Shown here one piece after another: positions 3,190 to 57,578 of a DNA stretch of 64,000 nucleotides; positions within the stretch are counted from its first letter, which is position 1; every line of letters begins with the position of its first letter. Below the pieces are notes generated by a model, which saw only the letters and a program-made list of their open reading frames with translations, did not search any database and was not told the origin of the DNA. The DNA comes from an uncultured Acidobacteriota bacterium (GTDB lineage: Bacteria; Acidobacteriota; Thermoanaerobaculia; Thermoanaerobaculales; Sulfomarinibacteraceae). The translations under genes and the position numbers were made by a program. The stretch spans positions 151,018 through 215,017 of the forward strand of contig CAWGLT010000023.1 in the NCBI GenBank assembly GCA_963823445.1. Direction: 5' to 3'.

Positions 3190-3539
3190 GAGCCCCTCCG
3201 TTTCGTTGCTGCGTTCGGTGAGGTCGCTCGGATCCGCGACCGTCGTCTCGAGGGTGCGGATCGACGAAACCCTCGGCAGTATAGCCGGTCCCCGGCCGGC
3301 CGTCATGGGCAGAGCCCGACAATCCTCCCGGTCGTTCGAGGCCCGGTTCGACGAAACCTCGGGCGGCGGTCGACGTAAACTATTGAGATGTCGCCTTGAG
3401 TGATCGGCGTGTCCCCTCAGGAGAGCGGGCCGGCGCCGGCTGTCTTGTTCGAGCCAGGTGTGGGAAGGCGAACTCGGGTGCGCCGGTTGGCATTTTGATT
3501 GCATTTGGTGCGTTGACGACTCGGAGGAAAGGGGACGCC

Positions 3540-4142
3540 ATGTGCTCGTTCGAACTCAAGAGGATCTCGACCATTGGACTCGCAGCGGCGGTTGTCGTCG
3601 TGCTCGTCGGTTGCTCATCCGCGACACCGACCGAAGATCCCGGGATCGATCGCGTCGGAAAATACGTGGTCATGAACAAGGGCTCACAGGCGGAGGTGGC
3701 CGTCGGCTACCGCTACGCCCAGCAGAACCTGGGATCCGAGTGGTTGGTGCTCGAGGTGGCGGCGACATCGCCCCCGAAGCAAACCGCCGTGATGAGACGT
3801 GACAAGGTCTCGGTGCAGACGCCGGCCGGGGAAACCGTTCTCCTCGCGACCCAGCGCGAGTTCAACGAAGCCTATGGCGCCCTCCAATCGGTGCTCCGGG
3901 CTGCCGATGTGGTGCGCGACCCGATGGAGTATTGGCCGCCGCGGAAGAGCACCTGTGCGATCCGGTTCTTTGTCGAGCCGGGGAGTGGAGTCTCGTTCGA
4001 CGAGGTCACGGTCAATGACTTTCGGGCCTGCCAGGGGAGGTTCCTTTTCAATATCCCGGGCGGCGTTCAGGCCGGTCGGTATGTCCTGACCCTGGACCTC
4101 GACAAGAGCGAGATGGAGATCCCGATCACCTTCACGGAGTAG
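3540..4142 (+). CDS. lipoprotein, function unknown
   Basis: ATG at 3540 is preceded by GGAGGAAAGGGG. Signal peptide with lipobox (VVLVGC). Confidence 0.65.
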   Translation: MCSFELKRISTIGLAAAVVVVLVGCSSATPTEDPGIDRVGKYVVMNKGSQAEVAVGYRYAQQNLGSEWLVLEVAATSPPKQTAVMRRDKVSVQTPAGETVLLATQREFNEAYGALQSVLRAADVVRDPMEYWPPRKSTCAIRFFVEPGSGVSFDEVTVNDFRACQGRFLFNIPGGVQAGRYVLTLDLDKSEMEIPITFTE

Positions 4143-4161
4143 CCGGACTCCTACGATTACA

Positions 4162-4189
4162 AAGGGGGCCCCGCTCGGGGCCCCCTTTC
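4162..4189. terminator. bidirectional intrinsic terminator hairpin
   Basis: AAAGGGGGCCCC-GCTC-GGGGCCCCCTTT, a perfect 12-bp stem flanked by A and T runs, between convergent genes. Confidence 0.85.
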
Positions 4190-4208
4190 TTCCGTTCTGA
4201 AAAGCGGC

Positions 4209-5627
4209 TCAGGGGAAGACCCCGAGCTCGCGGTACGACACGGCGATCTTGTCGATGGCGGCGATCATCGAGGCGGTGCGGAGATCGACGCCTTCGCCCT
4301 TTGCCATCTTGATGCCCCGTATCTCATGATAGGCCTCGATCATGGTTTCCTCGAGACCCGAGTTGACGAGATCGATCTCGTCGGGGCCCTTGGCGATCTC
4401 GGCGATTTCGGCGTCGGTGAAGATCCGGTTGGTGGAGTTCTCGATGGCCGACAGGAGCATTCGGCTCGAACTCTCGACAAAGCGCTTTTCCATCCGGCCG
4501 AAGCGCACGTGCTGGAGGTTTTTCAACCACTCGAAATAAGAGACCGTGACACCGCCGGCGTTGATGTACGCGTCGGGGATGATGAGCGTGCCCCGCTCGA
4601 AAAGAAAGTGCGATGCGTCCGAGCTGATGGGACCGTTGGCCGCCTCGGCGATGATCTTGGCCTGGATCCGCGGGGCGTTGTCCATGGTGATGGCGTTTTC
4701 TAAGGCGGCTGGAATCAGGATGTCGCAGTCGATCTCGAGACCGGCGTCGCGGGAGGGAAGAGCCACGGCGCCGGGGAAACCAAGGATCGAACCGGTCGCC
4801 TTGCGATGGGCCATCAAGGACTCGACATCGATCCCGGAAGGGCAAGAGATCGAGCCCTCGTACTCGACGACACCGACGATCACCGCGCCGCCGTCCTCCT
4901 GCATGAACTTGGCGGCGTGATAGCCGACGTTGCCGAGACCCTGAACCACGACCCGTTTCCCCTCGAGACCCGGGGTCAATCCGAGCGCCCGCATGTCGTC
5001 GCCGACGAGGCAGGCTTCGCGGAGGCCGAAATAGACGCCGCGGCCGGTGGCCTCGGTCCGACCCCGGATCCCGCCCTGGCCGACCGGTTTCGCGGTGACG
5101 CAGCCCAGACCGTCGATCTCGTGCGGGTTGAGGGTCATATAGGTGTCGGCGATCCATGCCATCTCACGGCTCGAGGTCGCGAAGTCCGGCGCCGGGACAT
5201 CGAGGCCGGGGCCGATGAAGTTTTTCTTGTTGAGCTCGTAGGTATACCTGCGGGTGATGCGTTCGAGTTCTTTCACCGAGTACTCGTGGGCCGAGATCCT
5301 GACTCCGCCCTTGGCCCCGCCGAACGGGACGTTGACGATCGCGCACTTGTAGGTCATGAGAGCCGACAGCGCCATGACCTCGTCTTCGTTGACGTTGGCG
5401 GCATACCGGATGCCGCCCTTGGTGGGCAACTTGTGTTGGCTGTGTTCCGCACGCCAGGCATGGATGACCTTGAGCGAACCGTCGTCTCGGATGAGTGGGA
5501 AGGTGAAGTGAATGACGCTGTTGACGCTCTTGATCTGCTCGAGCAGTCCGGGCGGGTGGTCGGTCAATGCGGCGGCTCGATCGAAATTCTTGTTGACTTG
5601 ATCGAAAAAACTGAGATCGGCGGTCAT
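4209..5627 (-). CDS. gdh: Glu/Leu/Phe/Val-family (glutamate) dehydrogenase
   Basis: 472 aa starting at MTADLSFF (ATG at 5627, GAGGGGG SD). Motifs [15 protein letters not shown] and GLGNVG. The upstream part of the 599-aa track ORF looks non-coding. Confidence 0.9.
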
Positions 5628-5790
5628 GAGGCACCCCCTCGCAAATGATTTTACTGAAAGGCCGGGAAAGCATACCACCGACATCGCCGGCTCCGTGGCC
5701 TTCAGCCGCAGTTTGCGGATTTCTCCCGCGCTGCAACCATTGGTCGGTTGCGGCCAAGTACTGGAGATGACGGAGAATGAGAGGCTGACG

Positions 5791-6327
5791 ATGAAACGCA
5801 TGATGACGTTGACGATGGTCGTGATCGGACTCGGGATAGCCGGGATCCGCGCAGCGGAGAACGGGGGGCAAGAAATGGGCGAAGTCATTTCCGTGTGGTC
5901 GGTGGAAGAGGGGAAGATGATCTCGACTGCCAGAATCATCAAGAGCGATGACGATTGGCAGCGGGAGCTGTCTCCGGAGGTGTACAAGATCACCCGAAGA
6001 AAGGGCACCGAGATGTCGTGCTCCGGAGCCTACTGGAAGAACGATCGCGAAGGTGTCTACCGCTGCGCCGCCTGTGGGAACGATCTCTTCGTCTCGACCA
6101 CGAAGTACACGTCCGGCACGGGCTGGCCGAGCTTCTTCCAACCGGTCCACGACGCAAACATCGGCAGCGAGCGCGACACCAGTCTGGGCATGGTGCGCGT
6201 CGAGGTTCATTGCGAGCGTTGTGGATCCCACCTCGGCCACGTCTTTCCCGACGGACCGAAACCCACCGGAAAGAGGTATTGCATCAATTCGCTGGCCCTC
6301 GACTTCGTCGAGATGGAAGTCAAGTAA
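5791..6327 (+). CDS. msrB: peptide-methionine (R)-S-oxide reductase with signal peptide
   Basis: Two CxxC pairs ([21 protein letters not shown]) and GWPSF. Signal-like [18 protein letters not shown]. The start could also be ATG 5767. Confidence 0.85.
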
Positions 6328-6330
6328 TTT

Positions 6331-6437
6331 TCAATTATGAATTTTTAATTATGAATTATGAATTGCGGAAGCTCTTCGACACCGTCGTGAGAATCTGCGA
6401 TGGAATTCATAATTCACAATTCATAATTCATAATTGA
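6331..6437. repeat. AT-rich hairpin built from heptad repeats (GAATTAT)n / (ATAATTC)n
   Basis: The 5' arm TCAATTATGAATTTTTAATTATGAATTATGAATTGCG pairs imperfectly with the 3' arm GGAATTCATAATTCACAATTCATAATTCATAATTGA. The loop is ~30 nt of normal GC content. It sits between msrB and the next gene. Confidence 0.85.
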
Positions 6438-6441
6438 TGCC

Positions 6442-7673: not shown

Positions 7674-7763
7674 CAGAATTCTCAATTCTTAATTGCATCG
7701 CAAAGTGTTATTGGGACTCTGCGATGCAATTAAAAATTAAAAATCAGGAATTGAGAATTCTCG
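7674..7763. repeat. AT-rich heptad hairpin (AATTCNN)n, terminator-like
   Basis: CAGAATTCTCAATTCTTAATTGCATCGCA ... TGCGATGCAATTAAAAATTAAAAATCAGGAATTGAGAATTCTCG, between convergent genes. Confidence 0.8.
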
Positions 7764-9715: not shown

Positions 9716-11512
9716 TCAGGAGCCCGTCGCAGGCAGGGCTGGATGCATGACGCGATAGATCGGCAGAAGACCGACCTGCTCGTCCCAGTGCGGGGTCCGC
9801 CGGTACCACCAGTCGTAACGCGCGCGCCCGTCGGCGGCGAAATCGGGATTCTCGAGCGCCGACTCCCACTCCGCCCTGGTGGCGTCGTCGGCGAGCATCT
9901 CGACCGCCAGCTCCTCGAGCTTGTCGAGCCCGATATAGGTCTTTTGCTCGAAGACCGAGTCGAGCGCGCCCCAGCGCAGCAGCGAATCCGGCGCCTCGGG
10001 TTCGAAGAGCTGGACCGCGACGGCGAAGTCCGGCTGGTCGGCCGGGATCCACAGGCTGCCCGCGGGGATCCGGCGGGTCTCCGTCTGCCGGGTGGTGACG
10101 AAATCCCTGACCATCACCGTGCCCTGGAAGGGAGCCTCGGCGAAGACCGGTGCGGCGACCCGGATGGTCTCGACCTCGAGCTCGACGGGCGCGGACAGGC
10201 GCTGCGTCACCAGGTGGTGCGCTTCGACCACCTCGACGAGCTGCGGCCAACCCGCGTGGACGAGATAGCCGCGCGGGCGCGCGAGCTCGAGTTCGGGCGC
10301 CGCAACGTGCCGGAAGGAGATCTCGGCCGGGACGATCTCGTCGCGGTGGTAGACAGTGCGCGGTCCGCCGGTGACCACCGAGGTCTCGGTGGTGGTGCGG
10401 TAGGACGGCCAGGTGAACTCGTCGTCGCTGTCGACGCCGCGCCACCGCACGATCACGGTCGACGGATCGGCGTCCGGTCCTGCCGAGAGCGCGGGTCCTC
10501 GCTTCCGCCGCCTGCGACCGCCGCAACGAGCGTCGACCCGGACCGGCCGGTCTCGACGATGAGGGCGTCCATGAAGTCGCGGTTGGCGAGCACCCGATCC
10601 CGGTACGGCTTGTGCGCGTGCATCTCGATGAGGATCGACGGCCGATTGATGAGCGGGAAGAACCCGGTCGAGTAGCGCGGCAGCTGGATGTCCGACCAGT
10701 CGACCCCGCTCGTCGGGTCGTCCCAGTCGACGAACGCGAGGTAGGGGCCGTTGGGGTGGCCGGCGGCGGCGGTGGCGTCGAGCACCCGCGGCAGGTGCGC
10801 AGCGACCCAGGCGTCGACCGCGGGGTCGAGTCGAGGTGCCTCGGCGACCATCCAGGTCAGAACCCAGGCGTGGTCGGAGCCGTTGGTGACGTGGTTGTCG
10901 ACGTGGAGGTGCGGCCGCCAGTCGGCGACGAGCTGCGCGAGCGCCCGCGCCTCGGGGCTCGCGAGCCGGAGGAAGTCGCGGTTGAGGTTGAGCCCGGCGG
11001 TGGTGGCGCGAAAGCCCATGCCCTCGACCGGGCCGTTCTGGTTGGGCCGGTTGTACGGCGAGACCCGCTCGTGGCCGTCGAGGTTGAAGATCGGCACGAA
11101 GAGCGTCACCGCCGCCTCGGCGAGATCCGGGCCGTCGGCCCAGGGCGATCTCGCGCAAAAGCATGAGGGTGGCGTCCTTGCCGTCGATCTCGCCGGCGTG
11201 GATGCCGCTTTGCAACAGCAGGATCGGCTTGCCGGCGGCGCGGGCAGCGGCCGGGGTGAAGGCTCCGTCGGACGAGACGATGACGAGGGGCAGCTCGCGG
11301 CCCTCGGCGGTTTCGCCGAAGCTCGTGACGCGGATGGTCTTCGGAGCGCGCGACTCGACGCGGCGGAGGAAGTCCATGGTCTCGGCAACGGTCGATGTGG
11401 CGCGGAAGTCGGTCTTCTCCGCCACCGTCTGCCAGACCTCGGGGACGTCCTCGGCGGTTGCGGGGCAGGGGAGGAGCAAGACAAGGCCGGCGAAGAGGGA
11501 AAGTCGTTTCAT
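9716..11512 (-). pseudogene. M14-family zinc carboxypeptidase, coding sense split over two reading frames
   Basis: The signal peptide, HxxE (SGIHAGEIDG) and the C-terminal third read in the frame of ORF 9716..11608. The central ~650 nt (TLFVPIFNLDGHER, NLNRDF, LHVDNH, ILIEMH) reads only in the frame of ORF 10453..11484. Frame switches are near 11140-11160 and 10485-10510. Confidence 0.55.
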
Positions 11513-11519
11513 GGCCGCC

Positions 11520-11547
11520 ACTCTAGCCCATCGCATTCTTACCGCAA
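11520..11547 (-). promoter_or_regulatory. sigma70-like promoter TTGCGG-16-TAGAGT, 7 nt before the ATG of the M14 gene
   Basis: Minus-strand reading is TTGCGGtaagaatgcgatgggcTAGAGTggcggccATG. The same module occurs at 13406-13433. Confidence 0.45.
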
Positions 11548-11595
11548 AGACCGCCAAGAACGCAAAGGACGTTGCAAAGGACATCGCCATATTGA
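11520..11595 (-). repeat. 9-nt-periodic repeat module E, copy 1
   Basis: ACCGCAAAG ACCGCCAAG AACGCAAAG GACGTTGCAAAG GAC. Homologous to 13403-13475 and to the arms of the hairpin at 16281-16438. Confidence 0.8.
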
Positions 11596-11699
11596 CCCGT
11601 CGCGGCATCGCACAATGGCGTGCCCGGCACCCCGAGGGACGTTTCTTTCCCTCCGACCCGGGGCGGCATCTGCCGCTGTCGGCCCGGCCGCTGCCGCTG

Positions 11700-11800
11700 C
11701 CCCCGACAGGCTGGAAGCCTGTCGCTACACAGGGGCCGTTCTTGATTGTGTAGCGACAGCCATCCTGGCTGTCGTCGGTGACGTGCCCGAACGCGGTACC
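11700..11800 (+). repeat. REPIN-like triple-hairpin element, copy A1
   Basis: GACAGGCT-GGA-AGCCTGTC (11705-11723), GCTACACA-15nt-TGTGTAGC (11724-11754), GACAGCCA-TCC-TGGCTGTC (11755-11773), with a conserved tail GTCGGTGACGTGCCCGAACGCGGT. Confidence 0.9.
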
Positions 11801-11907
11801 CTACCGCTGCCCCGGCCGCTGTCAGTGACGCTGTCCCGGCCGCTGTCGCTGTTCCCGGTTCTCACGGCTCCGGCCTTCCGGTCCGCCTTCGGCGGCCCGG
11901 CGTCGCC

Positions 11908-12126
11908 CCATCGGCGGGGTCGCTTGGGTGGTGAATGGGAAGGGCTGCGACCCCGCCGATGGCGCGCCGGCGGCCTTCTTCGTTGCCGGAGCAGAGGACC
12001 GCATCGCGCCTCCCGGGGGAGCCCGGTATGACAATGTGCGCAACGGGTTGCGGTGCCGGGAGGACTTTGGGGCACATTGTCAAACCCCGCACCCCGAGGA
12101 TCGCCCCTTTCCCTCCGACCCGGGGC
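11908..12126 (+). repeat. composite structured repeat B, copy B1
   Basis: 16-bp hairpin CCATCGGCGGGGTCGC/GCGACCCCGCCGATGG (11908-11962), then hairpin TGACAATGTGC/GCACATTGTCA (12029-12082), then a GCACCCCGAGG tail. Homologous to 26611-26886 (inverted) and 40839-41053. Confidence 0.85.
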
Positions 12127-12236
12127 AGTCTCGGTTCGGGTCCCGGGTGCGGTCGCTGGTTGCTGCCGCTGTCCCTGCTTGCTGTCGCTGATCGCTGCCA
12201 CTGATTGCCGCCGCCGCTCTGTGGTGGCCGCGGAAC

Positions 12237-13385: not shown

Positions 13386-13402
13386 CAGCCGATCCCAAGG
13401 AC

Positions 13403-13475
13403 GCCACTCTAGCCCATTGAATATTCACCGCAAAGAACGCCAAGATCGCAAAGGACGTCACATTTGACGTGTGGG
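13403..13475 (-). repeat. 9-nt-periodic repeat module E, copy 2
   Basis: ACCGCAAAG AACGCCAAG ATCGCAAAG GACG followed by the small hairpin ACGTCA-catt-TGACGT. Confidence 0.8.
13406..13433 (-). promoter_or_regulatory. sigma70-like promoter TTGCGG-16-TAGAGT upstream of the SGNH hydrolase gene
   Basis: Minus-strand reading is TTGCGGtgaatattcaatgggcTAGAGTggcg. It is the second copy of the promoter-bearing module E. Confidence 0.4.
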
Positions 13476-13540: not shown

Positions 13541-13604
13541 GGCAGGCAGGATGCCTGCCCCACAACGGAGACGGTTGAGTTGTGGAGCAGGCTTCCAGCC
13601 TGCT
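13541..13604 (+). repeat. REPIN-like triple-hairpin element, divergent copy A4
   Basis: GGCAGGCA-GGA-TGCCTGCC, CCACAAC-12nt-GTTGTGG, AGCAGGCT-TCC-AGCCTGCT. Same architecture and loops as A1-A3, with different self-complementary stems. Confidence 0.85.
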
Positions 13605-13761
13605 CATGATGGGATGATTCAATAATGTGATGGTTTTGCGATGGGTCGAAGGCGAGGCGCCGGCGGCCTCCCTCTGAGCCGGGAGAACACGGCCGCAACG
13701 TTGTAACCCGTGGTTAGGGATGAACGTCGCCAGGAACGCCCCGCCGAGCCTGATGCTGGCG

Positions 13762-13868
13762 TCGCGGGTGGCCGAGGGAGCCACCTTTAGCATTGTTCGG
13801 GATCAGCGTTGAGCCGAAGATCGGCGACTCACACCCGAACAATGACAAAAGACGGCACCCCGTTCGAC
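13762..13868 (+). repeat. two-helix hairpin element, copy D1
   Basis: GGGAGCCACCTTTAG CATTGTTCGG (13791-13800) ... CCGAACAATG (13835-13844) ACAAAAGACGGCACCCCGTTCGA. Near-identical flanks occur at 52622-52729. Confidence 0.85.
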
Positions 13869-13952
13869 GCCCTTCTTCCGATGCTCGAGGCTCTCGACCG
13901 CGTGTCCGGTTCGGCGCGTCCGACGCGCCGCCGCAATTCGTCCGACGAATTG

Positions 13953-15182
13953 CTAGGGCATCTCGGTCCGGGTGAGCATCTCCATCGCCTCCGGCCGCGG
14001 CTCGTTCTTCTTCGAATCCCAGTAGGGCGAGAGCCGTCGCAGGCTGTCGACGATCCCGGGAAAGACCTCGATGACTCGATCGACCTCGGCTTCGGTGTTG
14101 TAGCGGCTGAGCGAGAAGCGCACCGAGCCGTGGATCGCCGAGAAGGGGATGTGCATGGCTCTGAGGACGTGCGAGGGCTCGAGGGAGCCGGAGGTGCAGG
14201 CCGAGCCCGATGAGGCGCAGATGCCCTGCGCGCTGAGCTGGTAGAGGATGCCCTCGCCCTCGATGAAGTGGCAGGCGACGTTGAGGGTGTTGGAAAGCCG
14301 CGGCGAGTTCCTGCCGTTGACTTCGAGGTAGGGGATGCGGGCGACGAGCTCCCGCTCCAGGCGGTCGCGCATGGCGAGAATCCGCGGTTCGTCCTCATCG
14401 TGCCGCGCCATGGCGAGCTCGAGGGCCTTGGCGAGGGCGACGATGAAGGCGACGTTTTCGGTCCCCGCTCGACGCCCGTCCTCCTGGTGGCCGCCGAGGA
14501 GAAACGGCCGGCAACGGGTGCCGCGGCGGATGTAGAGGGCGCCGACGCCCTTGGGCGCGTGCAGCTTGTGGCCGGAGAACGACAGCAGGTCGACATGCTT
14601 GAACGAGCCGCGGAGATCGATTGGGAGCTTGCCCACGGTCTGGGTGGCGTCGGTGTGGAAGATGATGCTCTCGTCGGTTTCCTTGGTGATGCGGGAGAGC
14701 TCTTCGACCGGAAAGATGACCCCGGTTTCGTTGTTCGCGTGCATCACCGAAACCATCAGGGTGTCGGATCGGAGGGCGCGGACGAACTCGACGCGGTCGA
14801 TCTGACCATCGGCATCGACCGGGATGAAGTCGACGTCAAGGCCTCTGCGTCGGAGATCCTCGCCGACGGAGAAGATGGCCGGGTGCTCGACCCCGGTCGT
14901 GATGATGTGGCGGCGCTCCGGATTGGCGGCGATGGCGCCGAAGACCGCCGTGTTGTTGGACTCGGTCGCGCAGGAGGTGAAGAGGATCTCGGGCGGCCGG
15001 GCGTTGCCGAGGAGCCTGGCGACGGTCTTGCGCGCGTCGGCGATGGCGTCGGCCGGGATCTGGGCCGGTTCGTAGAGCGAACTCGGGTTGTAATAGTCAT
15101 CGGTGAGGAAGGGCATCAACGCCTCGACCACCTCGGGCGCAACCCGGGTGGTGGCGTTGTTGTCCATGTAGATGATGTTCAT
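13953..15182 (-). CDS. nifS: cysteine desulfurase (NifS/IscS type)
   Basis: 409 aa. PLP Lys context SFSGHKLHAPKG and active-site loop SSGSACTS. Downstream of nifU on the minus strand. Confidence 0.9.
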   Translation of the reverse strand: MNIIYMDNNATTRVAPEVVEALMPFLTDDYYNPSSLYEPAQIPADAIADARKTVARLLGNARPPEILFTSCATESNNTAVFGAIAANPERRHIITTGVEHPAIFSVGEDLRRRGLDVDFIPVDADGQIDRVEFVRALRSDTLMVSVMHANNETGVIFPVEELSRITKETDESIIFHTDATQTVGKLPIDLRGSFKHVDLLSFSGHKLHAPKGVGALYIRRGTRCRPFLLGGHQEDGRRAGTENVAFIVALAKALELAMARHDEDEPRILAMRDRLERELVARIPYLEVNGRNSPRLSNTLNVACHFIEGEGILYQLSAQGICASSGSACTSGSLEPSHVLRAMHIPFSAIHGSVRFSLSRYNTEAEVDRVIEVFPGIVDSLRRLSPYWDSKKNEPRPEAMEMLTRTEMP

Positions 15183-19391: not shown

Positions 19392-19458
19392 GGGAATCGC
19401 TCGATTGACATCCCCTCGGCACCGGCCGACGCGTTCCCTGTCGATGCCCCTGCCGCTG

Positions 19459-19600
19459 CCCCCGACAGGCTGGAAGCCTGTCGCTACACAGCGGCCGTTC
19501 TTGATTGTGTAGCGACAGCCATCCTGGCTGTCGTCGGTGACGTGCCCGAACGCGGTCCCCTGCCGCTGCCGCTGCCGCTGACGCTGCGGCTGCCGCTGCC
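19459..19600 (+). repeat. REPIN-like triple-hairpin element with (GCTGCC)n tail, copy A2
   Basis: Hairpins at 19464-19482, 19483-19513 and 19514-19532. Nearly identical to A1 and A3. Confidence 0.9.
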
Positions 19601-19603
19601 GTC

Positions 19604-19659
19604 GGTCGCTGCCCCGGTCGCGCGGTCGCTGCCCCGGTCGCTGCCCCGGTCGCTGCCCC
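19604..19659 (+). repeat. 12-mer microsatellite (GGTCGCTGCCCC)n
   Basis: Four full units and one truncated unit between A2 and A3. Confidence 0.9.
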
Positions 19660-19797
19660 CGACAGGCTGGAAGCCTGTCGCTACACAGCGGCCGTTCTTG
19701 ATTGTGTAGCGACAGCCATCCTGGCTGTCGTCGGTGACGTGCCCGAACGCGGTACCCTGCCGCTGCCGCTGCTGCTGACGCTGCGGCTGCCGCTGCC
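19656..19797 (+). repeat. REPIN-like triple-hairpin element with (GCTGCC)n tail, copy A3
   Basis: Starts 197 bp after A2. Hairpins at 19661-19679 and 19711-19729 flank the central GCTACACA/TGTGTAGC hairpin. Confidence 0.9.
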
Positions 19798-19867
19798 CCT
19801 GCTTGCGCGCTGAATCGGAAACGGGTTCGGAGGCAATTGCGGGCGAGGTGGGCTACAGTACGGTGCC

Positions 19868-22177: not shown

Positions 22178-22249
22178 GCCGACCGGACCCGTGCGGGTTG
22201 ATCCGGCGGAATCGCTCATCCCGGGTGGCGATGGACAGCACCCCCTCGC

Positions 22250-22405
22250 TTGCGTAGACTCGAGAGGACCGAATATGGGGAAGACGGTGCGAATCCGTCG
22301 CGGACCCGCCGCTGTGACCGGGGACGATGACCGGCAGAACCACTGCAATCGGTGATTGTGGGAAGGGCCGGTAGGTAGGACGATCCGGGAGCCAGAAGAC
22401 CCGCA
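22250..22405 (+). promoter_or_regulatory. cobalamin (B12) riboswitch
   Basis: GGGGAAGACGGTGCGAATCCGTCGCGGACCCGCCGCTGTGACCGGGGACGA ... CAGAACCACTG ... GGGAAGG ... GGGAGCCAGAAGACCCGC matches the conserved core and B12 box as I remember them. It lies directly upstream of a BtuF-like binding-protein gene. Confidence 0.8.
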
Positions 22406-22440
22406 GTTCGGCTTTGACGACCCTCGTGGATTGGGGTTTG

Positions 22441-26484: not shown

Positions 26485-26610
26485 GGTTGCCTCCTCCGCG
26501 TCGGATGCCCGCCATTCTCGCACATCATCCCGCGTCCGCGTCGGTTTCCGTGCCCATGCCCGATGTCTCAGCGGCAGCGGCAACCAGCGGCAACAACCAG
26601 CGACCGATAC

Positions 26611-26886
26611 GCCCTCCAGGACCCGCGGAAAACCACGCCCCATCGGGGTGCCGGGTTTGACATTGTGCCGGAGCGACCGACCAGCTTCGCGGCGCTCCCC
26701 GCACAATGTCATACCGGGCTCCCCCGGGACGGGCGATGAAGTCTGATCTCCCGGCTACGAAGCAGGCCGCCGGCGTGCCATCGGCGTGGTCGCAGCCCTT
26801 TCAATCAACCCGCGAGCGACCACGCCGATGGCGCGACGCTGGGCCGCTGGGACGCCAAAGCGTCACGGCGGCCCGGAAGGCCGGGG
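26611..26886 (-). repeat. composite structured repeat B, copy B2 (inverted)
   Basis: Hairpins TGACATTGTGC/GCACAATGTCA (26658-26711), CCATCGGCGTGGTCGC/GCGACCACGCCGATGG (26778-26831) and GACGC-CAAA-GCGTC (26851-26864). Roughly 85% identical by eye to 40800-41053 when reverse-complemented. Confidence 0.85.
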
Positions 26887-27113
26887 ATGAGGACAGCATC
26901 AGGGGCAGCATCAGCGACAGCGTCAGGAATCACCGACAGCGACAGCGGCGGCGGCAGTCTTCAGGGGCAGCGACAGTGGCAGCAATCAGGGACAGCGTCA
27001 GGAACCAACGGCAAAACGTGCGCGATCGGACGTTTCCCTTGACGCGGATCGCAGCATCAACACTCCTGGTTGTTCTTGATGAGACGGGAATCTGCGCCTC
27101 TGCGTTGAAACCG

Positions 27114-39851: not shown

Positions 39852-40070
39852 CCCTCGGGGCTTCCAGGATCCGTGCCCGGGTCCGCGTCCGATTCCGTTT
39901 CCGTTCCCGATCCCGATCCCGGTCCCGAATAGCAGCGTCCGGGGCAGTGGCAGCGGCAGCGCCAGGGGCAGCGACCGGGGCAGCGGCAGGAACAGCGGCG
40001 GCGTCAGCCTCCGCGTTTCTTTCCGTGCCCGTATCCGCTTCCGTGACAGATCCGAGCCGATCTGCGATGG

Positions 40071-40838
40071 ATTGTGGGGGCGGGCTTCCAGCCTGCCCGT
40101 CAGGGTTGTTGAAGCCGGCCGTGCGTTCCCGAGAGAGTGCGGGGTATTGGGTCTTGTGGGATCTCGGGTTCCTGTCCTCCTCCCCGGCCTTCTGGGCCGC
40201 CGTGACGCTCTGGCGTCCCGGCGACCCAGCGTCGCACCATCGGCGTGGTCGCGGTTTTCTTTCAGGTTGGGCGGACATTGTGGGGGCGGGCTTCCAGCCT
40301 GCCCGTCAGGGTTGTTGAAGCCGGCCGTGCGTTGCCGAGAGAGTGCGGGGTATTGGGTCTTGTGGGATCTCGGGTTCCTGCCCTCGTCCCCGGCCTTCTG
40401 GGCCGCCGTGACGCTGTTGCGTCCCGGTGTCCCAGCGTCGCACCATCGGCGTGGTCGCGGTTTTCTTTCAGGTTGGGCGGTCATTGTGGGGGCGGGCTTC
40501 CAGCCTGCCCGTCAGGGTTGTTGAAGCCGGCCGGGCGTTGCCGAGAGAGTGCGGGGTATTGGGTCTTGCGGGATCTCGGGTTCCTGCCCTCGTCCCCGGC
40601 CTTCTGGGCCGCCGTGACGCAGTGCGTCCCGGCGACCCAGCGTCGCGCCATCGGCGCAGTCGCGGTTTTCTTTCAGGTTGGGCGGACATTGTGGGGGCGG
40701 GCTTCCAGCCTGCCCGTCAGGGTTGTTGAAGCCGGCCGTGCGTTGCCGAGAGAGTGCGGGGTATTGGGTCTTGCGGGATCTCGGGTTCCTGCCCTCCTCC
40801 CCGGCCTTCTGGGCCGCCTCCGGCGACCCAGCGTCGCA
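40071..40838 (+). repeat. tandem array of four ~206-bp structured non-coding units
   Basis: Units start with ATTGTGGGGG at 40071, 40277, 40483 and 40688 (periods 206, 206, 205). Copies 1-3 are ~95% identical by eye. Copy 4 lacks one internal hairpin and merges into element B3. Confidence 0.9.
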
Positions 40839-41053
40839 CCATCGGCGCGGTCGCGCGTGGGAGGCGGGGAGGGCTGCGACCACGCCGATGGCGCGCCGGC
40901 GGCCTGCCTCGCAGCCGGGAGAGCAGACCGCATCGCGCCTCCCGGGGGAGCCCGGTATGACATTGTGCGGGGAGCGCCGCGAAGCCTGGAGGTCGATCCG
41001 GCACAATGTCAAACCCGGCACCCCGATGGGGCGGGGTATTCCGCGGGTCCTGG
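40839..41053 (+). repeat. composite structured repeat B, copy B3
   Basis: Hairpins CCATCGGCGCGGTCGC/GCGACCACGCCGATGG (40839-40891) and TGACATTGTGC/GCACAATGTCA (40958-41011), with tail AAACCCGGCACCCCGATGGGGCGGGGTATTCCGCGGGTCCTGG. Confidence 0.85.
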
Positions 41054-41170
41054 TCGGGCGCTGTCGCTGTCGCTGATTCCTGCCGCTGTCCTGCCGCTGT
41101 TCCTGCCGCTGTCCCGGCCGCTGCATGCTGCCCCTGCCGCTGTCCCGGATACGGTTGTATCCTCGCGGTC

Positions 41171-49704: not shown

Positions 49705-49809
49705 CGTGAGACGTGAGGGGGTGAGGAAGTGAGGAGGTTCGAAGGCGAGGAGTGGAGTGTGAAGAACCTCCTAACCCCTAACTCCTAACCCCTCACTCTT
49801 CACCTCTCG
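49705..49809. repeat. heptad-periodic imperfect hairpin (GTGAGGN)n / (CCTAACN)n
   Basis: CGTGAGACGTGAGGGGGTGAGGAAGTGAGGAGGTTC ... GAACCTCCTAACCCCTAACTCCTAACCCCTCACTCTTCACCTCTCG. The right arm overlaps the 3' end of the HD-GYP CDS. Confidence 0.75.
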
Positions 49810-51036
49810 ATCCCCGAGCCGATCCCAGATCTCCGCCATGCCGCCGTGGTGGTCGGCGAAGAGCCGCCGGAGATCCGGGTCGAGGTGGCCGTCCGGGTCC
49901 ATCCGATCGTCGCCGTCGAGGATGACCTTGCGCGACTGGTCGTGGCTGAACCCGATCTTGTACGGGCGCGTCGAACGGAGTGCATCGTAGATGTCCGCGA
50001 GGGCGACGATCCGCGCCTCGATGGGGATCTCCTCGCCCCGCCGGCGGTTGGGATACCCGCCGCCGTCCCAGCGCTCGTGGTGGTTGAGGGCGATGGCTGC
50101 CGCCATCTGGAGCCGGTCCGAGGACTCGAGGATCTGATAGCCGAAGACCGGGTGCTGGTTCATTTCGGCCCGTTCGTCGGCGTCGAGTGGTCCCTTCTTG
50201 CGGAGGACCATCCCATCCACGCTCATCTTGCCGACATCGTGGAGTTGAGCGGAGTACCGGATCTCGTCGCAAAAGCTCGCCGGCATCCCGTGCGTCCTCG
50301 CGATGAAGTAGGAGTACTCGTTGACCCGCAGGACATGGGATGCGGTGTCGGTGTCGTGGACCTCGGCCGCGCGGGCGAGGAGGTTGATGGAGAGCTGGAA
50401 CGCCTCTTCGGTTTCCTGGTGCAGGGCGGCGATTTTCTCTCTCTGCTCGGCGAGGATCCTGTTGCGATCGCGAAGCCTGACGTTCTGCGCCTTGATGCGT
50501 CCGAGCATCTCGGCCCGTTCGATGGCGCTGCCGACGATGTGGTTGACCGGGACGATGAGGCCCGCCTGTTCTTCACCGAATGGCAACGGCCGATCGATTT
50601 CGCCGGTTCTCCGGTTGATGAGCTGGACCACGCCGACGACGTTGCGGTCGTAGTTGAGGAGCGGAAAGGAGAGCATGGAACGGCTGTGGTACCCGTGTTT
50701 GAGGTCGAATCGGCGATCAAAGGTGTAGGGGACGCTGCGCGGGAGATCGTAGAGGTCCTCGACGAAAACCGTCTCTCCGGTGGTGGCGGTGAATCCGGCG
50801 ATGGAGGAGGGTGTCATGGGCACGACGAAGGACGCGGGTTTCACGGCGATGACGTCGTTTTGTGAGTCGGCCGCCTCGAGCCGCCGGCTGCGCCCGCGAC
50901 CCCTGACGATGAAGATGGTGCCGGCTTCCGCTCCCGTGAGCTCGCGGCTCTTGAGGAGCACGCGGTGCATGAGCCTTTCCACGGACTCGGGCTTCGACGA
51001 TTCGATGAACTCGAGAAACTCCCTGAGTGCGTCCAT
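49771..51036 (-). CDS. GAF domain - HD-GYP domain protein (c-di-GMP phosphodiesterase type)
   Basis: HDVGK and HHERWDGGGYP motifs, with an N-terminal GAF-like domain. Confidence 0.85.
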   Translation of the reverse strand: MDALREFLEFIESSKPESVERLMHRVLLKSRELTGAEAGTIFIVRGRGRSRRLEAADSQNDVIAVKPASFVVPMTPSSIAGFTATTGETVFVEDLYDLPRSVPYTFDRRFDLKHGYHSRSMLSFPLLNYDRNVVGVVQLINRRTGEIDRPLPFGEEQAGLIVPVNHIVGSAIERAEMLGRIKAQNVRLRDRNRILAEQREKIAALHQETEEAFQLSINLLARAAEVHDTDTASHVLRVNEYSYFIARTHGMPASFCDEIRYSAQLHDVGKMSVDGMVLRKKGPLDADERAEMNQHPVFGYQILESSDRLQMAAAIALNHHERWDGGGYPNRRRGEEIPIEARIVALADIYDALRSTRPYKIGFSHDQSRKVILDGDDRMDPDGHLDPDLRRLFADHHGGMAEIWDRLGDREVKSEGLGVRG

Positions 51037-52394: not shown

Positions 52395-52504
52395 TGTGGT
52401 TGATCAACCTCCGGCGGCGCCTGACGATTCCAGGTAACAAGATGATTGCGTCCGGCTGCGGTGCCTGGCGCTCGGGGCGCGATGGACAGCGCATTCAGCG
52501 GCGC

Positions 52505-52546
52505 GTGCCTGGCTCTCTTTTCGTCCGACGAAAAGGTGCCTGGCAC
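52505..52546 (+). repeat. GTGCCTGGC-flanked hairpin element, copy F2
   Basis: GTGCCTGGCTCT CTTTTCG-TCCGA-CGAAAAG GTGCCTGGCAC. Flanks are conserved with copy F3 over ~70 nt. Confidence 0.9.
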
Positions 52547-52621
52547 CGCACGGGAACAATGATGAAAGCATCATGTCCTGGCAAGCGTTTCTGGCAGCGC
52601 CGTCCCGAACCCGATTCTCCC

Positions 52622-52729
52622 ATCGCGGGTGGCCGTGGGAGCCACCTTTAGCATTGTTCGGCATCGAGGTGAGGCCGACGTCGAGGCCACTCTGAATCCG
52701 AACAATGCAAAAGATGGCACCCCGTTCGA
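52622..52729 (+). repeat. two-helix hairpin element, copy D2
   Basis: GGGAGCCACCTTTAG CATTGTTCGG (52652-52661) ... CCGAACAATG (52698-52707) CAAAAGATGGCACCCCGTTCGA. Confidence 0.85.
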
Positions 52730-53915: not shown

Positions 53916-54013
53916 TTCGTGATCTCCCTGCAGGCACGATGGGTGCCGAATGAGTATACGGGGGCTGCGATGCAGGGTTTGACCGAAAACGGGTAGGATG
54001 AGGTGTCAATTTT

Positions 54014-54162
54014 GAATGATGAATTATGAATTATGAATTATGAATTATGAGTTGAGAATTCGGAGTGAGGTGTGAGGAAGTACGTGCTGCGGTAAGGGGT
54101 GCGACACGCCCAACGTCTAACGTCTAACGTCTAACCCCTAACGTCCAACTCCTAACCTCCTG
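54014..54162. repeat. two abutting heptad arrays: (GAATTAT)4 grading into GAGTGAG/GTGTGAG, then (CGTCTAA)3 grading into CCCCTAA/CTCCTAA
   Basis: 7-nt periodicity over about 10 units on the left (54014-54083) and about 7 units on the right (54114-54162), in a divergent promoter region. Confidence 0.8.
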
Positions 54163-57351: not shown

Positions 57352-57428
57352 TTCGGGCTTGCGATGTCCCGGGTTCTGATGATCGGTGCTGGCTCCTGGG
57401 GAACGAAGGACAGCGCGTTCAGCGGCGC

Positions 57429-57470
57429 GTGCCTGGCTCTCTTTTCGTCCGACGAAAAGGTGCCTGGCAC
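57429..57470 (+). repeat. GTGCCTGGC-flanked hairpin element, copy F3
   Basis: Core identical to F2. Lies in the 227-nt spacer upstream of the RNase H gene. Confidence 0.9.
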
Positions 57471-57578
57471 CGCACGGGAAGGGCGCTCAAAGCACCATGC
57501 GAGGAAAGGCGATTCGTTCGGAGCTTCGGGCTAGCTTGGTTTGCCGCCGGAGTGGTGACTGCGCTACCGTCACTCATC

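Follow-up and report, generated by a model that had tools for sequence, protein, structure and literature searches.

Covarying intergenic hairpins as the probable core of a palindromic repeat family in uncultured Acidobacteriota

A 64,000-nt stretch of contig CAWGLT010000023.1 (positions 151,018 to 215,017; hereafter the window) from an uncultured Acidobacteriota bacterium of the Sulfomarinibacteraceae carries five copies of a hairpin-forming sequence in two subfamilies, which are designated as B and D. An earlier reading of the sequence alone (the original prediction) proposed that compensatory substitutions maintain the fold of these copies, and implied a discrete structured RNA or protein-binding site. 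The locus thus raises the question of what kind of element keeps such a fold. In this study, we characterized the hairpin, its relatives and its surroundings computationally. We consider it likely that the hairpins are the core of a high-copy, non-coding family of interspersed palindromic repeats, which resembles repetitive extragenic palindromic (REP) sequences or transposable elements of the miniature inverted-repeat type (MITEs) and in which the folded single strand is recognized. The family resides between the genes of a clade of uncultured Acidobacteriota from soil and sediment.

Acidobacteriota rank among the most abundant bacteria in soil, and little of their non-coding DNA has been charted. 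The family appears to be undescribed: it has no Rfam model, and the hairpin repeats published for the phylum are other ones. It may take a percent-level share of intergenic DNA, and naming it would prevent its copies from being mistaken for regulatory RNAs or small open reading frames (ORFs). It could also mark lineages and recombination in metagenome-assembled genomes (MAGs). The invariant hairpin base, the fixed mismatch and the preferred strand together provide a defined substrate for seeking a recognizing protein.

The core hairpin and its covariation

The five full copies are spaced 1.8–14 kb apart, in both orientations, among housekeeping genes of the window, which has a G+C content of 65%. 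All of them were present where the original prediction had placed them, and a covariance model of the core (R1) found these five full copies and no others in the window (5 per 64 kb). The pattern CATTGTN{25,55}ACAATG matched four times in the window (0.02 expected by chance) and ACAATGN{1,12}GGCACCCCG five times (0.00 expected). All five GGCACCCCG sites in the window were preceded by ACAATG, one of them being a truncated sixth copy, H, which R1 did not match. The copies are as follows.

11610 to 11634, plus strand: truncated copy H; 3′ arm only, GCACAATGGCGTGCCCGGCACCCCG; subfamily GCGCCATTGTGC/GCACAATGGCG; repeat D14
12013 to 12096, plus strand: B1 core hairpin of subfamily B′; flipped arms GACAATGTGC/GCACATTGTC, base CCGCACCCCG; covariance model score 77.8, RNA folding z-score −1.9
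13772 to 13862, plus strand: D1 core hairpin; arms GCATTGTTCGGG/CCCGAACAATG, middle CCTTTAG/CAAAAG; covariance model score 79.9
26644 to 26727, minus strand: B2 core hairpin, inverted; covariance model score 94.8; identical to its ortholog in locus L028
40942 to 41025, plus strand: B3 core hairpin, CCGG-GGGAGCC...GGCACCCCG; arms GACATTGTGC/GCACAATGTC; covariance model score 94.7
52633 to 52724, plus strand: D2 core hairpin; covariance model score 73.4

Both RNA and DNA energy models gave the core of 80–95 nt the form of one long, imperfect hairpin, with about 30 bp in the stem and a tip that varies. RNA folding energies range from −40 to −49 kcal/mol with z-scores of −4 to −6, B1 being the exception; the B3 core reaches a minimum free energy of −49.1 kcal/mol (z-score −4.7; DNA fold, −4.9). 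The hairpin base is invariant and consists of CCG-N-GGGAGCC on the 5′ side and GGCACCCCG on the 3′ side. Its pairs follow the order C-G, G-C, a bulged N, GGG/CCC, an A.A mismatch and GCC/GGC, in which the C and G of the 5′ CCG-N pair with the terminal CG. The mid-stem varies freely, always on both arms, and the tip is specific to the subfamily.

This architecture modifies the one first described. The outer helix GGGAGCC/GGCACCC had been thought to close an internal loop; its A.A mismatch is indeed fixed, whereas the supposed loop is mostly base-paired and covaries, the stretch between the helices being largely complementary (GGTATGA/TCAAACC in B and CCTTTAG/CAAAAG in D). The two helices therefore belong to the same uninterrupted stem, which is about 30 bp long and has a few fixed mismatches. 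The inner arms CATTGTKCGG/CCGMACAATG, described as common to all five copies, occur exactly in D1 and D2 but not in the B copies: B2 and B3 have CCGGCACAATG with one additional G, and the arms of B1 are flipped. Nor are the tips unrelated between copies, as had been thought; those of B2 and B3 are near-identical, and tips are alike within subfamilies, GCCGGnTGGTCGnTCCGG being common to the B tips (dozens of copies) and ATCGGCGACTCACA to the D tips.

The conservation of the fold through compensatory changes was borne out. Among 82 distinct copies, 83% of the alignment cells in the stem formed standard pairs, compared with 72.4% in column shuffles, and pairing dropped to 31–43% when the 3′ partners were slid by 1–3 columns. 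Double-sided changes occurred at 15 of the 26 stem pairs, and none of 500 shuffles matched any observed covariation measure. Pairing was also above the shuffles with more copies aligned: in 117 copies, metagenomic ones included, 86% of the cells paired (shuffle maximum, 75.5%), and two to four types of Watson–Crick pair were found at 11 or more stem positions. The G:C to T:A swap between B and D (column pair 27–89; GC 45, UA 34) and the A:T to T:A flip of B1 (pair 23–93; UA 70, AU 12), on which the original prediction had been based, are both subfamily-wide, and these two events are a small sample of those present.

The hairpin is retained in subfamilies with very different middles, such as GACATTGTGC/GCACAATGTC, GACAATGTGC/GCACATTGTC, GGCATTGTGC/GCACAATGCC and GCGCCATTGTGC/GCACAATGGCG, as well as in the variants GCGCTATTGTGC/GCACAATAGCG, CCGCATTTGTGC/GCACAAATGCGG, GACAATGTTGGGA/TCCCAACATTGTC and CTCGACGTTTTTC/GAAAAACGTCGAG. 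In some metagenomic copies, of which CTCGACGTTTTTC/GAAAAACGTCGAG is an example, the mid-stem is largely or wholly different and the hairpin intact. The copies represent an old, diversified repeat family and not the termini of one recently amplified insertion element. G.U wobble intermediates are nearly absent, and the changes are mostly transversion swaps common to whole subfamilies. Given that the helices are long and near-perfect and that G.U is nearly absent from them, they are like DNA palindromes. Strong stem covariation alone does not prove an RNA function, because palindromic DNA repeats yield the same signal. The fold is conserved as proposed, yet neither an RNA nor a regulatory site is established thereby.

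The mismatches also carry information on the strand. The A.A mismatch is fixed in 114 of the 117 copies. On the strand as originally read, A.C mismatches outnumbered G.T mismatches in these copies (97 versus 10), and a count of deviations from the Watson–Crick consensus of each subfamily over the outer 24 pairs gave 20 versus 5 (p = 0.004). This excess of A.C over G.T indicates that the complementary strand folds better. Copies of D and of a further subfamily, E, fold 6–8 kcal/mol better on the complementary (minus) strand (D1, −46.9 kcal/mol compared with −41.0 kcal/mol on the plus strand), and B shows no clear preference. The complement of the strand as originally read is probably the active one.

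Relatives, longer units and genomic context

Relatives outside the window were searched for in one genome per species with a pattern of the flanks that left the stem free (GGGAGCC-N50-80-CAAA-N3-4-GGCACCCCG). The pattern hit at least 109 loci. Among the matches listed, about 60 are genuine elements, all from uncultured Acidobacteriota MAGs, and their hosts are several Microflora Danica bins, Ww181, an unclassified bin and a Sulfomarinibacteraceae MAG; the rest of the matches listed are due to chance and include tRNA-Pro genes whose 3′ end fits the pattern. The element itself is not derived from a tRNA: the likeness of its 3′ tail to the 3′ end of tRNA-Pro goes only as far as the search pattern imposed, and ARAGORN found no tRNA in the window and, in 38 loci, identified none of the elements as one. 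A second scan, of metagenome contigs with the hairpin base alone as the pattern, yielded about 35 further genuine copies from soils and sediments. In viral contigs the same pattern gave nine matches, all by chance, and BLAST against plasmids gave no match to the element, so that a phage or plasmid origin was rejected.

R1 found about 100 distinct copies in 532 kb of Acidobacteriota loci, a density of about one copy per 12–15 kb, which extrapolates to some hundreds of copies per genome. At least 10 stem subfamilies were distinguished. The window is identical to none of the loci; it is syntenic, at about 75–95% nucleotide identity, with MFD09779.bin.2.172 (loci L025 and L028), MFD03804.bin.1.249 (L050) and L107. 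A known RNA family was ruled out by Rfam scans. At the gathering score, Rfam 15 gave no match to the element in the window, where its only match was an unrelated cobalamin riboswitch (22219–22422, plus strand; 88.8 bits, E = 1.3e-20), and permissive E-value scans of three element regions gave microRNA-precursor-like matches below threshold and nothing else.

The core sits inside longer units, which comprise about 300–340 nt with four long hairpins in B and about 150 nt in D. Those of the window, together with an associated array and module, are listed below.

11870 to 12130, plus strand: full B1 unit; hairpin a (11870–11881), hairpin c (arms 11901–11923 and 11947–11966), core and tail; repeat D4
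26590 to 26896, minus strand: full B2 unit; hairpins a–c lie to the right of the core on the plus strand
40071 to 40893, plus strand: 206-nt tandem array of about four units that runs into the B3 unit
40790 to 41058, plus strand: full B3 unit; hairpin a CCGGCCTTCTGG (40801–40812), short b, c (arms 40832–40854 and 40876–40895), core d and tail CCCCGATGGGGCGGGGTATTCCGCGGGTCCTGG
52495 to 52553, plus strand: D accessory module, GTGCCTGGC - CTTTTCG TCCGA CGAAAAG - GTGCCTGGCACCGCACGGGAA; repeat D11

The span 40839–41053, to which the hairpin had been assigned, lies inside the B3 unit, which follows the 206-nt array; each array unit consists of a GTGG-type REP and B hairpins a–c without the core hairpin. 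The B2 unit is 92% complementary to the B3 unit over a 184-nt inverted repeat (I1). In long-flank alignments, the sequence common to B copies extended beyond the core by about 250 nt upstream and about 50 nt downstream, and a consensus of the B unit was obtained from 44 such copies. Its fold (RNAalifold, 43 copies) contains four long helices with 55 pairs, 20 of which have double changes. Helix a is CCGGC/GCCGG, helix b is GGGCCGCTGTGACGC/GCGTCCCAGCGGCCC (shortened in some copies, B1 and B3 among them), helix c is CGTCGCACCATCGGCGTGGTCGC/GCGACCACGCCGATGGCGCG and covaries with the variant CCGAGCAGCG/CGCTGCTCGG, and helix d is the core hairpin. The unit ends in the terminator-like sequence CCCCG-AUGGGG-CGGGG-UUUU. 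D copies have about 40 nt upstream (CCGAACCCGATGCTCCCATCGCGGGTGGCCGA) and about 12–30 nt downstream in common. The D accessory module, of which a second copy lies at 57419–57477, is often found about 80–100 nt upstream of D cores, likewise in loci L012, L072 and L082.

B units often form direct tandem arrays with a spacing of 444 to about 1100 nt; three tandem B copies occur in L083 and two each in L065, L043 and L029. In L001, one D and three B units in the same orientation lie in a stretch of about 3.2 kb without a credible ORF (3268–6433), which is unusually long for non-coding DNA in a bacterium.

All copies are intergenic, and their neighbors are unrelated housekeeping genes, which encode, among others, an M14 peptidase, a GDSL lipase, an aminotransferase, an acyl-CoA dehydrogenase, UppS, a radical SAM protein, MeaB, an MFS protein, RNase III and SSB. 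The positional bias relative to gene ends for which the original prediction had suggested a check is absent from B and mild in D. The orientation of B copies relative to their neighbors is random (8, 9, 9 and 8 in the four combinations), and their distribution over convergent, divergent and co-directional regions (9:9:16) matches chance. In D, 18 of the 25 copies have the 3′ side facing a gene end, a mild excess. These copies lean toward a position shortly downstream of a gene, often within 200 nt, whose reading sense is that of the better-folding strand. A consensus scan of the B3 unit revealed no sigma-70-like promoter and no terminator.

Several regulatory identities were rejected. A sigma-70 promoter or intrinsic terminator was dismissed, as neither was called in the B3 region and B is equally frequent in divergent and convergent regions; a sigma-54 promoter (GGCAC...TTCG/TTGC as −24/−12) was dismissed by inspection, the spacing and the −12 box being unfit; and a riboswitch or other cis-regulator was dismissed because the neighbors are functionally unrelated and B orientation is random.

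Orthologous sites were compared in about a dozen intergenic regions of related genomes. The element persists in one B case and most of the D cases, at an identity (77–90%) similar to that of the flanking genes. Other sites have turned over, with elements gained, lost or exchanged between related genomes: the B3 site in L050 carries a different stem subfamily and no 206-nt array, the D1 site in L025 carries a degenerate B-like unit, and the site of H and B1 in L025 carries a D copy. The subfamilies differ between L054 and L073, and where L102 has a D copy, L053 has a GTAG-REP doublet instead. The window holds one copy of D2, which in L107 forms a tandem doublet with a 140-nt unit. The intergenic regions are mosaics of shuffled modules.

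Such arrays and mosaics, the L107 doublet included, would be expected if the element were a passive palindrome with neither a recognized function nor a mobilizer, spread by tandem duplication and recombination, with the complementarity of its arms restored by intrastrand template switching (quasi-palindrome correction). Transversion-type double changes without wobble intermediates also agree with this explanation. However, template switching would erase the A.A and other fixed mismatches as well, although these are kept in nearly all of the 117 copies; dispersal to hundreds of unlinked sites in several Acidobacteriota families needs a transfer mechanism; and the invariant hairpin base points to sequence-specific recognition. 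We therefore regard passive spread as very improbable.

The B2 region behaves differently from these sites. The whole 530-nt intergenic region between uppS and the acyl-CoA dehydrogenase gene is 98–100% identical to that of L028, whereas the adjacent coding DNA is 73–96% identical. In the 8-kb comparison, no other stretch is as conserved as this island (26568–27100 in the window and 3826–4360 in L028), which holds B2, CAGCG-rich repeats and unique sequence. Its identity could stem from recent recombination or from constraint.

Constraint of this kind would agree with selection at the RNA level, according to which the elements would be processing or barrier sites for RNase III or exonucleases, non-canonical terminators or a multicopy small RNA gene, and the B unit a multi-hairpin RNA of about 300 nt. 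The strong covariation with a fixed internal mismatch, the folding z-scores of −4 to −6 and the four helices of the B unit with their conserved linkers and 20 covarying pairs favor this possibility, as do the terminator-like B end, the asymmetry of A.C over G.T, which points to one functional strand, and the lean of D copies. Nevertheless, no Rfam family matched apart from the microRNA-precursor look-alikes below threshold, B orientation is random with divergent regions as frequent as convergent ones, and the B3 scan found neither a conserved sigma-70-like promoter nor a terminator. Near-perfect helices of 15–30 bp in which G.U is nearly absent are unusual for functional RNAs, and hundreds of copies, tandem arrays and turnover at orthologous sites do not fit either. 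Because of the random orientation, the lack of transcription signals and the long near-perfect helices, we rank an RNA role below a DNA repeat and consider it unlikely. The discrete structured RNA or protein-binding site implied at the outset was not supported: the hairpin is the core of longer units with, by extrapolation, hundreds of copies per genome, its neighbors are unrelated, B orientation is random, no conserved promoter or terminator was found in the B3 scan, and orthologous sites turn over.

Recognition and comparison with known repeats

The family behaves like REP, REPIN and BIME sequences and like ERIC, Correia and RPE elements in being high-copy, intergenic, indifferent to orientation, modular, tandemly duplicated and long-lived with turnover. 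We propose that the folded single strand would be the form recognized by a dedicated enzyme, most probably as single-stranded DNA (ssDNA) exposed in replication or repair. Such an enzyme would tell strand and sequence from the invariant base together with the fixed mismatch, and would require of the other parts of the stem only that they pair. REP-associated tyrosine transposases (RAYTs) and IS200-type HUH tyrosine transposases treat the hairpins of REPs and of insertion sequence (IS) ends likewise. If transcribed, the hairpins would incidentally yield very stable RNA stem-loops in untranslated regions (UTRs). Recognition at the ssDNA level is favored because the base is invariant, the middle covaries freely, the mismatch is fixed and one strand is preferred.

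Several results weigh against a mobilized, strand-specific DNA repeat. A phmmer search with E. coli RayT through about 10,600 ORF segments of the fetched loci (about 1.5 Mb) gave no match, the single-sequence query being insensitive to class 3 proteins. The genes adjoining inverted pairs are ordinary, with no transposase or nuclease partner found there, and Pfam assigned housekeeping domains or none to the ORFs between inverted copies. An unpaired GT[AG]G foot like that of REPs is missing from the core, target-site duplications were not seen, and neither the core nor the units are flanked by direct repeats. The orthologous comparisons included no clean pair of a filled and an empty site; the only present/absent pair (L102 versus L053) is a wholesale replacement in which insertion boundaries are unreadable. 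Counted by column, the mismatch asymmetry is 12 versus 5 (p = 0.14), and it arises partly from subfamily-fixed columns. Neither GC skew nor gene strand showed a significant bias with element orientation, although a mechanism acting on lagging-strand ssDNA might predict a skew bias, for which the skew of MAG fragments is a weak proxy. Finally, the identity of the B2 island could reflect functional constraint rather than selfish DNA.

That no target-site duplication was seen also bears on the possibility that the element is a classical MITE, that is, a deletion derivative of a DDE-type IS whose arms are terminal inverted repeats (TIRs) bound as double-stranded DNA by the transposase. Covariation of the arms would then mean that both ends co-evolved with different transposases, not that the fold was selected. 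The arms are inverted repeats in which conservation is highest toward the outside, the size and intergenic location agree, the subfamilies differ by blocks of changes in both arms, and the outer ends GGGG[AT][GC]C[GC] match 7 of the 8 positions of GGGGWSAS, the motif reported for the inverted repeats of TIR-flanked Y1 transposases (TIRYT) (PMC3733652). In contrast, conservation extends 50–250 nt beyond the arms (250 nt on one side in B), and the arms are not unit termini because conserved sequence continues outside them. Neither a full-length element with such ends nor a transposase was found in about 1.5 Mb of fetched DNA, and the fixed A.A mismatch and the A.C over G.T asymmetry are unexpected for recognition of TIRs as double-stranded DNA. 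A classical MITE is thus doubtful.

Our interspersed palindromic repeat resembles REP, REPIN and BIME sequences, which are mobilized by RAYTs (TnpA-REP), in several respects. All are high-copy, strictly intergenic imperfect palindromes with fixed mismatches that form single-strand hairpins; several subfamilies occur per genome as singlets, doublets and mosaic clusters, and vertical inheritance is long with turnover. The element differs from REPs in its size (a core of 80–95 nt with a stem of about 30 bp, compared with 20–40 nt) and in its 5′ edge, where CCG-N is itself paired, whereas REPs have an unpaired GT[AG]G foot. It is also embedded in conserved units of 150–340 nt, and the fetched loci yielded no RAYT gene with copies on its flanks.

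Known from Acidobacteria are TIRYT and, next to class 3 TnpA-Y1 genes, atypical hairpin repeats without GTAG; these repeats have a CnGA foot and number about 600 in Solibacter usitatus (PMC6006769, PMC3733652). Our element resembles these repeats in being a high-copy hairpin of the same phylum that is not GTAG-tagged, with a CCGA/CCGG tetranucleotide at the 5′ edge and GGGAGC within the motif. The published class 3 repeat of Solibacter, CCGAGCCGCGACCGTAAGGGAGCGG (26–30 nt), is nonetheless a different sequence, which had only three loose matches across all loci, and this identity was rejected.

With ERIC, Correia (NEMIS), RPE, RUP and BOX elements, the family has in common units of 100–350 bp, long imperfect hairpins, an intergenic or UTR location in either orientation, subfamilies and indels, and, for some of them, a mobilizer that is unknown; their transcripts form RNA hairpins able to affect mRNA processing. 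It differs in that it has no sequence relationship to them, that no TA or other target duplication was seen, that conservation extends asymmetrically past the hairpin and that each unit combines several distinct hairpins. Integron attC sites, which are recognized on one folded strand, are alike in conserving a fold over varying sequence, with fixed unpaired bases and a variable tip. The element has no RYYYAAC/GTTRRRY core sites (GTTCGGG does not fit GTTRRRY), cassette array or constant orientation, and its neighbors are housekeeping genes; an integron attC identity was rejected on the core sites and array organization.

More speculatively, the invariant base and the covarying stem might be the recognition module of an undescribed strand-specific system of Acidobacteriota, either for ssDNA mobilization or with a domesticated nuclease, which would have no relation to the GTAG-REP/RAYT pair present alongside it in these genomes. 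Alternatively, they might belong to a selected class of multi-hairpin RNAs of about 300 nt, which we mention because the 98–100% conserved B2 intergenic region might hint at it. We put forward this pair of possibilities only tentatively.

Other repeats in the same intergenic regions

Canonical REPs, in which the foot is GTAG or GTGG and the loop is constant (TCC), are also present in the window, at 11703–11778, 13543–13612, 19462–19537 and 19659–19734, and further at 40074, 40280, 40486 and 40691. Examples are GTAG CGACAGCCA TCC TGGCTGTCG and GTGG AGCAGGCT TCC AGCCTGCT. They are mostly arranged as head-to-head doublets (REPIN-like), their stems covary between copies, and they closely resemble the subclass 2.7 REP of Solibacter usitatus (PMC6006769). 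These doublets share mosaic intergenic regions with the elements, an arrangement also reported for REP/BIME clusters (PMC3733652).

B units and REP doublets are bracketed by GCTG-rich tandem repeats of 12 or 24 nt (CCGCTGTCC.../GGCAGCGAC...), which occur at 11666–11845, 19425–19800, 26910–27013, 39932–40008 and 41059–41123. The arrays on either side of the B3 complex are mutually inverted (32 nt, 94% complementary).

Small hairpins with a variable stem and a constant TCCGA (or CCGGA) loop were found at 13913–13953, 52495–52553 and 57419–57477 and in intergenic regions of L102 and L053. Their sequences are GGCGCG TCCGA CGCGCC, GCAATTCG TCCGA CGAATTGC and CTTTTCG TCCGA CGAAAAG. The GGCGCG and GCAATTCG hairpins are situated just beyond the end of a gene and are found again at the orthologous site in L025, as well as in L102/L053. 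These hairpins may act as terminators or constitute a separate repeat family.

AT-rich heptamer runs, (AATTATG)n with inverted copies, occur in this genome of 65% G+C at 6312–6438, 7721–7759 and 53994–54074; all three sites are intergenic, two between divergent genes and one between convergent genes. Heptamer runs of the CTAACCC and CTAACGT types lie at 49771–49810 and 54117–54156, likewise intergenic and near the AT-rich heptamer site at 54 kb. Lastly, a repeat of about 63 nt (CGCCACTCTAGCCCAT..ACCGCAAAGA.CGCCAAGA.CGCAAAGGACGT) is located at 11510–11572 and 13396–13458, immediately upstream of two minus-strand genes (M14 peptidase and GDSL lipase), and is conserved in the related MAG (L025, 4940–5010); it may be a common promoter or leader.

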